Source: Escherichia phage JS98
Strand: one strand, 5' to 3'
Sequence record: NC_010105.1
Length of the DNA: 64,000 nucleotides
Shown here: positions 59,246 to 60,089 of the stretch, one piece after another
Layout of the letters: each line of letters opens with the position of its first letter
Position numbering within the stretch: the first letter of the stretch is position 1
The notes under the pieces: model-generated
What the model saw: the letters and a program-made list of their open reading frames with translations, nothing else
What the model was told of the DNA's origin: nothing
The model's database searches: none
Made by a program: the position numbers and the translations under genes

Positions 59246-59386
59246 TTACCATACTAGTGAATGAATAGCCATAATAACATCGGAAATAAAAAGCACAACT
59301 TGGATAAGACCGAATATTACTCCATAATACAGTGCTACCAATAAAGCAGCAAGGGCCACCGAGTAGCCCAAGATTTTCTTAATCAT
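59246..59386 (-). CDS. Small membrane peptide, 46 aa (52.1-like)
   Basis: Manually read [49 protein letters not shown] overlaps the upstream stop. Confidence 0.45.
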   Translation of the reverse strand: MIKKILGYSVALAALLVALYYGVIFGLIQVVLFISDVIMAIHSLVW

Positions 59387-59540
59387 TTTTAATCATCTTA
59401 AGTAAACCGACAAAAGTAGAAAGAACCCAGCCAATAAACAGAAAACTTAAGAATACCGGACCAGGGGTCCACACGCCTAAAAAGAAGCAAACCGAACAGA
59501 CTATAGCCGTAATAAGTTCAATAAAAACTATGATAATCAT
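59379..59540 (-). CDS. Small membrane peptide, 53 aa (ac-like cargo A)
   Basis: Manually read MIIIVFIELITAIVCSVCFFLGVWTPGPVFLSFLFIGWVLSTFVGLLKMIKND; preceded by hairpin + UAAUGAGGAAAAU SD. Confidence 0.45.
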   Translation of the reverse strand: MIIIVFIELITAIVCSVCFFLGVWTPGPVFLSFLFIGWVLSTFVGLLKMIKND

Positions 59541-59550
59541 ATTTTCCTCA

Positions 59551-59628
59551 TTAGCGTCCGAAGACGCCTTTAGTTTTAAGATTGTTACGATAGAACTGCA
59601 TCACATGTTCGTTATGGGAATTACTCCG
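59551..59628 (-). pseudogene. stp-like copy lacking a start codon
   Basis: rc encodes (R)[24 protein letters not shown] in the stp frame, but the first codon is CGG and no in-frame ATG lies upstream. Confidence 0.5.
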
Positions 59629-59689
59629 TAATACAGTGTTACCAATAAAGAAGAAAGGGCTACCGAGTAACCCAAGATTTCTTAATCAT
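59625..59689 (-). pseudogene. Truncated, frameshifted copy of the 46 aa membrane-peptide gene
   Basis: About 89 percent identical to 59321-59386 with a 1 nt deletion; reads MIKKSWVTR*. Confidence 0.5.
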
Positions 59690-59835
59690 TTTTTGGTAAA
59701 GGCCTGTAGAATCAGAACAAATGCCAATATGAATTGTGGAATGGCCTGAGAAATGACCGAAGTTTCACCCGTTGTAATAGTCCAAATACCTAGATAAGTC
59801 CAAATACCCGCAGCAAAACCTTGTAAAATATTCAT
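59686..59835 (-). CDS. Small membrane peptide, 49 aa (cargo B)
   Basis: Manually read MNILQGFAAGIWTYLGIWTITTGETSVISQAIPQFILAFVLILQAFTKK; preceded by hairpin + UGAGGAAAAU SD. Confidence 0.45.
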   Translation of the reverse strand: MNILQGFAAGIWTYLGIWTITTGETSVISQAIPQFILAFVLILQAFTKK

Positions 59836-59842
59836 ATTTTCC

Positions 59843-59923
59843 TCAAGGGCGTCCGAAGACACCAGTTAATTTCAGATTATGACGGTGCCATTGCATCACA
59901 TGTTCATTATGGAAGTTACTCAT
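59843..59923 (-). CDS. stp: Stp peptide (26 aa)
   Basis: rc encodes [26 protein letters not shown], matching recalled T4 Stp ([26 protein letters not shown]) at 20 of 26 positions. Confidence 0.7.
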
Positions 59924-60089
59924 AGATACCACACATTTTGCATAAACGTTCAAAACAGATATAACCACCACATAAACACATCATGACGGCAACTTTATCA
60001 TTAAAGGGCATACCGAAAGCCATAAAGGCTCCGGTAACTACTAATAAAGCTAAAACAAATAGATAACCCATTACAAAGAACGTTCTCAT
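59916..60089 (-). CDS. Small cysteine-rich membrane peptide, 57 aa
   Basis: Manually read [57 protein letters not shown]; abuts the ndd stop. Confidence 0.4.

Follow-up and report, generated by a model that had tools for sequence, protein, structure and literature searches.

The window analysed here is a stretch of 64,000 nucleotides (nt) from Escherichia phage JS98 (sequence record NC_010105.1), and the element under study is an array of small genes lying between ndd and gene 52 on its minus strand. The sequence and the listing of its open reading frames (ORFs) were re-read, and the gene order, ORFs and relics described in a first-pass annotation, made from the sequence alone, were all recovered at their positions. 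In the direction of the minus strand, the order is ndd, a gene for a 57-amino-acid (aa) peptide, an intact stp, the gene of peptide B, a relic of 52.1, a relic of stp, the gene of peptide A, 52.1, and gene 52. The array comprises five intact genes (57-aa peptide, stp-W, B/ac, A, and 52.1) and two relics (52.1' and stp'). Its location is, as had been claimed, that of the ndd-stp-ac-52.1-52 interval of phage T4, with the layout of which it was compared. The interval is thus the cluster of early accessory genes between ndd and gene 52 in a T-even phage, here a Dhakavirus. The features of the interval are the following:

60590..60617, minus strand: early promoter-like site of the sigma-70 type (TTTACA, 16-nt spacer, TATAAT, with TG; 11/12 matches)
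60091..60540, minus strand: ndd, nucleoid disruption protein, 149 aa (relatives match PF06591)
59916..60089, minus strand: 57-aa peptide, phrog_5941 (a single hydrophobic segment at the N-terminus, Cys-rich tail)
59843..59923, minus strand: intact stp, W-type allele, 26 aa (PF08133)
59836..59863, minus strand: hairpin 1, GGUGUC-UUCG-GACGCC (59848-59863), and the GAGG Shine-Dalgarno (SD) sequence of B
59686..59835, minus strand: peptide B, 49 aa, assigned to the Ac family (phrog_2501)
59627..59689, minus strand: 5' relic of 52.1, codons 1-21 (ATG at 59689; 1-nt deletion)
59620..59626, minus strand: GAGTAAT junction microhomology (overlap of both repeat families)
59551..59619, minus strand: stp relic, T4-type, codons 4-25 and stop, extending to 59626 when the heptamer is included (without start codon)
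59541..59568, minus strand: hairpin 2, GGCGUC-UUCG-GACGCU (59553-59568), and the GAGG SD of A
59379..59540, minus strand: peptide A, 53 aa, phrog_9347 (two hydrophobic segments around WTPGP)
59246..59386, minus strand: 52.1, 46-aa membrane peptide, DUF7396 (PF24129)
57913..59241, minus strand: gene 52, topoisomerase II medium subunit, 442 aa, with a T4-type N-terminus

The two cargo genes, each placed between an stp copy and a 52.1 copy, belong to different families. Judged by profile and motif, peptide B belongs to the Ac ('acridine resistance') family. It matched phrog_2501 with an expectation value (E) of 3.9e-20, the same PHROG as T4 Ac (E 2.2e-25), and carries the sequence TGETSVISQA, which corresponds to the Ac-family motif TGETSV(I/F)SQA. 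The peptide is 49-51% identical to Ac of Klebsiella phages, tblastn matches it to annotated Ac genes with an E of 7e-8, and the ratio of non-synonymous to synonymous substitution rates (dN/dS) is about 0.35. At 59686-59689, its stop codon TGA shares bases with the ATG that opens the 52.1 relic, as ac overlaps 52.1 in T4. B and T4 Ac belong to one PHROG, are equal in size, occupy the slot between stp and 52.1, and have their hydrophobic segments similarly arranged; however, B is highly divergent (about 34% identity over 29 aligned residues) and coexists with A. The first-pass annotation had expected an extra, uncharacterised cargo peptide at the locus. This description does not suit B, a homologue of Ac (phrog_2501), and the uncharacterised peptide is A, a resident gene of Dhakavirus.

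Peptide A matched phrog_9347 (E 1.1e-25), whose function is uncharacterised; it was present in 90 phage records and showed dN/dS values of 0.19-0.51. No similarity between A and Ac was detected, A matching phrog_9347 only and an hhalign comparison of the A profile with the Ac profile giving a probability of 0.3%. The assignment to different PHROGs and this value agree with the earlier view that the two cargo ORFs are unrelated. By these comparisons, A is placed in a family separate from Ac; most Dhakaviruses carry it as their resident gene in the ac slot. In dhaeg (L028, 916-1080) and Ec2-ASingh (L006, 1016-1180), the slot is occupied by yet another peptide, MEPVFRFIYMIAV..., which has 54 aa and is ~25% identical to A. 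The in-frame fusion of this peptide with 52.1 in Ec2-ASingh was rejected as a probable homopolymer error, since this unverified record has one A more than dhaeg, in which the gene ends at a normal stop.

The 57-aa peptide matched phrog_5941 (E 1.6e-22) and was found in 231 phage records, always beside ndd, with dN/dS values of 0.11-0.44; T4, JS10, and IME281 have no counterpart of its gene. It is an ordinary, widespread, and optional gene between ndd and stp. The 52.1 product matched PF24129 (DUF7396) with 79.2 bits (cut-off 27), is 93% identical to T4 gp52.1, and has dN/dS values of 0.07-0.12; its gene ends 4 nt short of the start of gene 52. A, B, T4 Ac, and the 57-aa peptide are not covered by any Pfam model. 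Compared with diverged homologues, the five intact small ORFs had dN/dS values of 0.07-0.5.

The intact stp product matched PF08133 with 55.3 bits (cut-off 25) over residues 1-25 of 26, and phrog_6763 with an E of 2e-19. It differs from T4 Stp by F12W, Y13H, N15H, T19L, K20T, and Q26P, and this W-type allele shows only synonymous change among Gapriverviruses. The two relics are truncated. The stp relic begins at codon 2-3 and has no ATG, GTG, or TTG that would give a full-length product; the ORF listing contains no ORF of at least 20 aa ending at 59551. In the 52.1 relic, a run of A is one A short, so that it reads MIKKSWVTR and stops at a TAG at 59662-59660.

Two families of direct repeats run through the array. 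The first, D1, aligns 59533-59626 with 59828-59921 at 73 of 94 positions (78%) with a period of 295 nt, and the second, D2, aligns 59316-59376 with 59620-59680 at 55 of 61 positions (90%) with a period of 304 nt. D2 extends as an exact 16-nt match at a spacing of 303 instead of 304, which corresponds to a 1-nt deletion; both the shared flanks and the deletion had been noticed previously, and the match counts and the register shift bear them out. When the 1.1-kb region was shuffled 100 times, no 94-mer exceeded 49 matches and no 61-mer exceeded 37, so the observed repeats (73 and 55) are well above chance. D1 and D2 overlap at 59620-59626, which reads GAGTAAT on the minus strand. The same heptamer occurs in codons 22-24 of 52.1 (GGA GTA ATA) and in codons 1-3 of stp (ATG AGT AAT). 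The presence of microhomology at the junction had been correctly recognised, but the sequence proposed for it, ttactcc(a/g)taatacag, marks where the 52.1 homology ends, and the true heptamer lies within it. The array shows direct repeats in register, truncated copies (52.1' and stp'), and a 7-nt microhomology, the features by which unequal or illegitimate recombination is recognised.

Short repeats of this kind are able to mislead assemblers, and the structure might in principle be an artefact of assembly or sequencing. The junction nevertheless recurs in three read-set assemblies and in six or more phage genomes sequenced independently of each other, with differing secondary variants, and an artefact has a negligible probability. 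Apart from JS98, the contiguous junction was found only in IME281, Esco_phi_B-01, UP19, EcWhh-1, and NC-G (with a further 31-nt deletion) among ~585 matching records, and also in three Logan assemblies derived from independent read sets. Genomes of the IME281 type carry the stack without the 57-aa gene. At an identity of at least 99%, B was confined to stack-bearing genomes in GenBank phages, IMG/VR, and a set of 5.8 billion proteins.

The alleles point to a different source for each unit. Together with its SD, the stp relic matches JS10 stp at 77 of 77 nt. The upstream stp matches the gene of UPEC07 at 84/88 nt and that of TH44 at 83/88 nt (both Gaprivervirus), and T4 or JS10 at 71/89 nt. The 52.1 relic matches intact 52.1 genes at 64-66 of 72 nt, the best sampled match being 92%. 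In these alignments, which bear on the question of which unit is ancestral, the downstream unit (T4-type stp, A, and 52.1) is identified as the resident one, and the upstream unit (W-type stp, B, and a 5' piece of 52.1) as the putatively imported one. The array had been called duplicated, and tandem repeats in direct orientation, 295-304 nt apart and with a microhomology at the junction, are indeed expected of unequal crossing-over between sister genomes, by which a resident module would have been duplicated in place and its copies would have diverged later. The stp copies are, however, 78% alike, yet each is 95-100% identical to alleles in other phages, so that two diverged alleles of different lineages are joined here. 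The cargo ORFs belong to different families without detectable homology, and no divergence in place could have made Ac out of A. Duplication in place is accordingly a very improbable history of the array. The array is best read as two heterologous modules, each composed of stp, a small membrane peptide gene, and 52.1, which lie head to tail and were joined by illegitimate recombination; the probability of this reading is estimated at about 0.8.

In the simplest history, a single illegitimate crossover at GAGTAAT joined a donor carrying stpW, Ac, and 52.1 to the resident stp, A, and 52.1, with the upstream module ending after the first 65 nt of 52.1. Insertion of a ~300-bp circle closed at GAGTAAT would be an alternative route with an equal product. 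At the left end, ordinary homologous recombination would have resolved the structure, either within the conserved 5' portion of stp or at a point upstream of it. The 3' end of stp with its hairpin and SD, and the AATGATTAA overlap with the 5' end of 52.1, probably serve as homology arms, between which Ac and A replace each other among T-even genera, with rare unequal events stacking them.

Related loci show the unstacked modules and exchange at the same flanks. The T4 cluster resembles the window in gene order, in the AATGATTAA overlap of cargo and 52.1, in the GGCGUCUUCGGACGCC CUUCGG hairpin within the last stp codons, and in the GAGGAAAAUAUG start region. T4 has one module and no 57-aa gene, whereas the window has two modules with a W-type Stp, a divergent Ac, and the added A. 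Dhakavirus JS10 has the single layout ndd, stp, A, 52.1, and 52, with the hairpin and SD as in the window. A catalogue of 18 loci was compared for the occupant of the slot, the stp allele, and the 57-aa gene, and these proved to vary independently: genomes have or lack the 57-aa gene, stp is T4-type or W-type, and the cargo is Ac or A. Tequatrovirus AugustSocin (Bas38) carries A between T4-type flanks, with the order stp, A, 52.1 as against stp, Ac, 52.1 in T4. The ac slot is dimorphic, being occupied by Ac or by an unrelated peptide. In the AugustSocin/Bas38 record, ndd is annotated in two parts (a split gene; L013, 656-1113). Klebsiella T4-like phages (K65_evo2; L014, 1037-1483) have ndd, the 57-aa peptide, Ac, and 52.1 without stp, so Stp itself is optional in the cluster.

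Two further types of stack were found. Gapriverviruses TH40, DCP80, and EAWsc9 have the order stpW, A, 52.1', stpW' (from about codon 12), Ac, and 52.1, joined at ATGG. Tequatrovirus REP4 and an ENA contig (L021) have stp, A, ATGATTAAGAAATC (a 14-nt 52.1') with a short linker and SD, Ac, and 52.1; Ac of this contig is 73% identical to B. As neither the junctions nor the gene orders agree, at least three separate stacking events took place, and all of them paired A with Ac. The three independent stacks and the AugustSocin arrangement show that the earlier proposal of cassette exchange at conserved flanks was broadly right. The co-occurrence of A and Ac in three genera would also be explained by an ancestor that held both (stp, A, Ac, 52.1), the single-cargo genomes having arisen by repeated loss and the stacks being survivors. 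The REP4-type stack could be taken in this sense, since it retains only a 14-nt remnant resembling 52.1, is common to a Tequatrovirus and a metagenomic contig with a B-like Ac, and may be old. But recognisable second relics of 52.1 and stp make sense only as two complete modules joined, the three types of stack differ in junction and are opposite in gene order, and ~98% of the about 585 records are single-module; moreover, the few genomes examined suggest that stack-bearing genomes are nested within single-module clades. An ancestral pair with repeated loss is therefore considered improbable. No description of a stack of stp with Ac and A was found in the literature.

The relic part of the stack has decayed further in some genomes. 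In NC-G and two Logan assemblies (L026 and L027), 31 nt of the 52.1 relic have been lost, which removes its stop and places its ATG in frame with the stp relic. The resulting 33-35-aa chimera consists of MIKKSWATVLR followed by Stp residues 2-25 (L001, 2063-2170; L026, 1647-1748; L027, 1060-1161). Its stp part carries V9A and N15I in NC-G, and T19I and G24stop in the Logan contigs; with these non-synonymous and nonsense changes, the chimeric stp copy looks unconstrained.

Hairpins 1 and 2, each with a stem of 6 bp and a UUCG loop followed by (U/A)UGAGGAAAAUAUG, are located ahead of the B and A ORFs, and the isolated hairpin folds at -8.9 kcal/mol. The first-pass annotation had placed a hairpin and an SD ahead of each cargo ORF, and this part stands. 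A signal specific to the cassette is not supported, as the hairpin encodes the conserved C-terminus GVFGR of Stp (GVFGRP in hairpin 1) and is also present in T4. Its conservation and the known CUUCGG motif back the hairpin, whereas the folding energy does not. Across the whole window, CTTCGG occurs 41 times compared with 19 expected (~two-fold), a count reached in none of 100 shuffles (0/100). CUUCGG hairpins were reportedly described for T4 mRNAs by Tuerk et al. in 1988, and the enrichment in the window fits them; it agrees with the idea that CUUCGG tetraloop hairpins occur generally in this genome's transcripts.

Each ORF of the array has its own SD of the GAGG type, and stop and start codons overlap between the 57-aa gene and stp (ATGAGTAA) as they do between cargo and 52.1. 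The sole strong promoter match for the array is the site upstream of ndd; no other minus-strand promoter site with at least 10/12 matches was detected from ndd to the last codons of 52.1. All genes of the array would be read from this early promoter, each being translated from its own SD. The hairpins may shape or stabilise the mRNA just 5' of the cargo start, and the stp relic may have been kept, at least partly, as the source of the CUUCGG hairpin and SD for A. The 52.1 relic also contains a terminator-like hairpin, GGGTTACTCGGTAGCCC, at 59657-59673 on the minus strand, followed by TTTCTTCTTT, with a tail extending to about 59647. In intact 52.1, the stem is as in the relic and the tail is TTGCTGCTTT, the tail of the relic having become T-rich through two G-to-T changes. 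An Rfam scan of 58900-60800 gave a single match to a long non-coding RNA at chance level (E 0.88).

In T4-type phages, hyperplastic regions are known for modular shuffling and for PeSL cassettes (Arbiol et al. 2010, PMC2839356; PMC4122927). The window resembles them in that small non-essential early ORFs are swapped, inserted, and deleted at short conserved flanks, possibly through a circular intermediate. A dedicated mobile regulatory cassette of the PeSL kind, made of the hairpin-plus-SD repeats and moving ORFs by way of mini-circles, would account for the conserved stretches of ~90 nt and ~65 nt that flank a variable ORF. A circle closed at GAGTAAT and integrated by homologous recombination would give the observed structure, and RB49 and phi1 are phages in which PeSL mini-circles have been shown to form (PMC2839356). 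A PeSL is, however, defined as intergenic, with a strong early promoter and a terminator stem-loop, whereas the flanks in the window are coding sequence (the 3' end of stp and the 5' end of 52.1) together with the translation start region. No minus-strand promoter-like site lies inside 59390-60089, and the hairpins are followed by (A/U)UGAGGAAAAU without a U tract and were unmatched in a terminator scan of the minus strand. A cassette of this type is thus an unlikely explanation, slightly less credible than the ancestral pair. The joining of two heterologous modules is a case of unequal recombination in a known hyperplastic region and represents known plasticity, not a new kind of system. It illustrates, at the resolution of single bases, how very small early genes are exchanged and stacked in T-even phages through coding flanks and a 7-nt microhomology.

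Several observations weigh against this reading. An unstacked donor with stpW, B, and 52.1 was not found in GenBank phages (tblastn), in IMG/VR (a peptide-pattern scan and two hairpin-spacing pattern scans), or in the set of 5.8 billion proteins. The searches yielded only stack-bearing genomes and one B-like gene, so that the imported origin of the upstream unit rests on allele similarity and not on a known parent. The nearest relative of B (73% identical) itself sits in a different stack, that of the REP4 type. The pairing of A with Ac in every stack may just as well be neutral and reflect the instability of homologous duplicates: stacks of identical modules would be quickly lost by homologous recombination, while stacks with unrelated cargo share only an imperfect repeat of 60-90 nt. 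Local z-scores give the hairpins weak support (-0.95 to -2.5), and the terminator-like hairpin of the 52.1 relic, if working, could counter simple read-through to A, 52.1, and gene 52.

With regard to function, Ac makes infection acriflavine-sensitive, and the AcrAB-TolC efflux pump has been proposed as its site of action in a preprint (bioRxiv 10.1101/2025.06.30.662393; cited in PMC13250531). A and Ac may be complementary. As a tentative and rather doubtful extension, they could be non-homologous alternative early membrane effectors acting on the host envelope (e.g., on efflux or permeability), held as a long-lived dimorphism across Tequatro-, Dhaka-, and Gapriverviruses and stacked for their complementary action. 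If this were true, stacking A with Ac would widen the range of hosts or chemical environments tolerated by the phage. Natural genotypes for testing the functions of Ac and A are available, namely Ac only (T4), A only (JS10 and AugustSocin), and both (JS98 and IME281).

Stp, a peptide of 26 aa, inhibits type Ic restriction (EcoprrI) and activates the PrrC anticodon nuclease (Penner et al. 1995, reviewed in PMC3014915). Its N-terminal 18 residues are functional and almost invariant, and suppressor mutations cluster at residues 4-14 (PMC3014915). The upstream copy in the window is a full-length member of PF08133 and has residues 1-11, as well as 14 and 16-18, as in T4 Stp. It differs from T4 Stp at three of the 18 near-invariant residues, 12, 13, and 15 (W/H/H for F/Y/N), of which F12W and Y13H fall inside the 4-14 stretch; a further difference is that the second stp copy of the window is a relic lacking a start. 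The W-type Stp could possibly be a specificity variant with respect to which type I restriction and PrrC systems are inhibited or triggered. The sequence comparison flags it as an allele changed within the part needed for restriction inhibition and PrrC activation.

In the JS98 annotation, Ndd (ABX11172), Stp (ABX11171), B (ABX11170), and 52.1 (ABX11169) are all letter-identical to the proteins of the window. As these accessions are consecutive, the 57-aa gene and peptide A are implied to be unannotated in JS98. Two genes without annotation in JS98-type genomes are thereby flagged, both belonging to conserved families (phrog_5941 and phrog_9347) under purifying selection.

Downstream of the array, the N-terminus of gp52 was observed in two forms. 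The first, MELTSRGLKS (442 aa), is present in the window (59190-59245), IME341, and T4, and the second, MADVIDTLFKQSLD, which is 17 residues longer, in NC-G, IME281, and JS10 (L001, 2479-2540; L002, 1842-1900). The two forms place a mosaic boundary exactly at the 52.1/52 junction.

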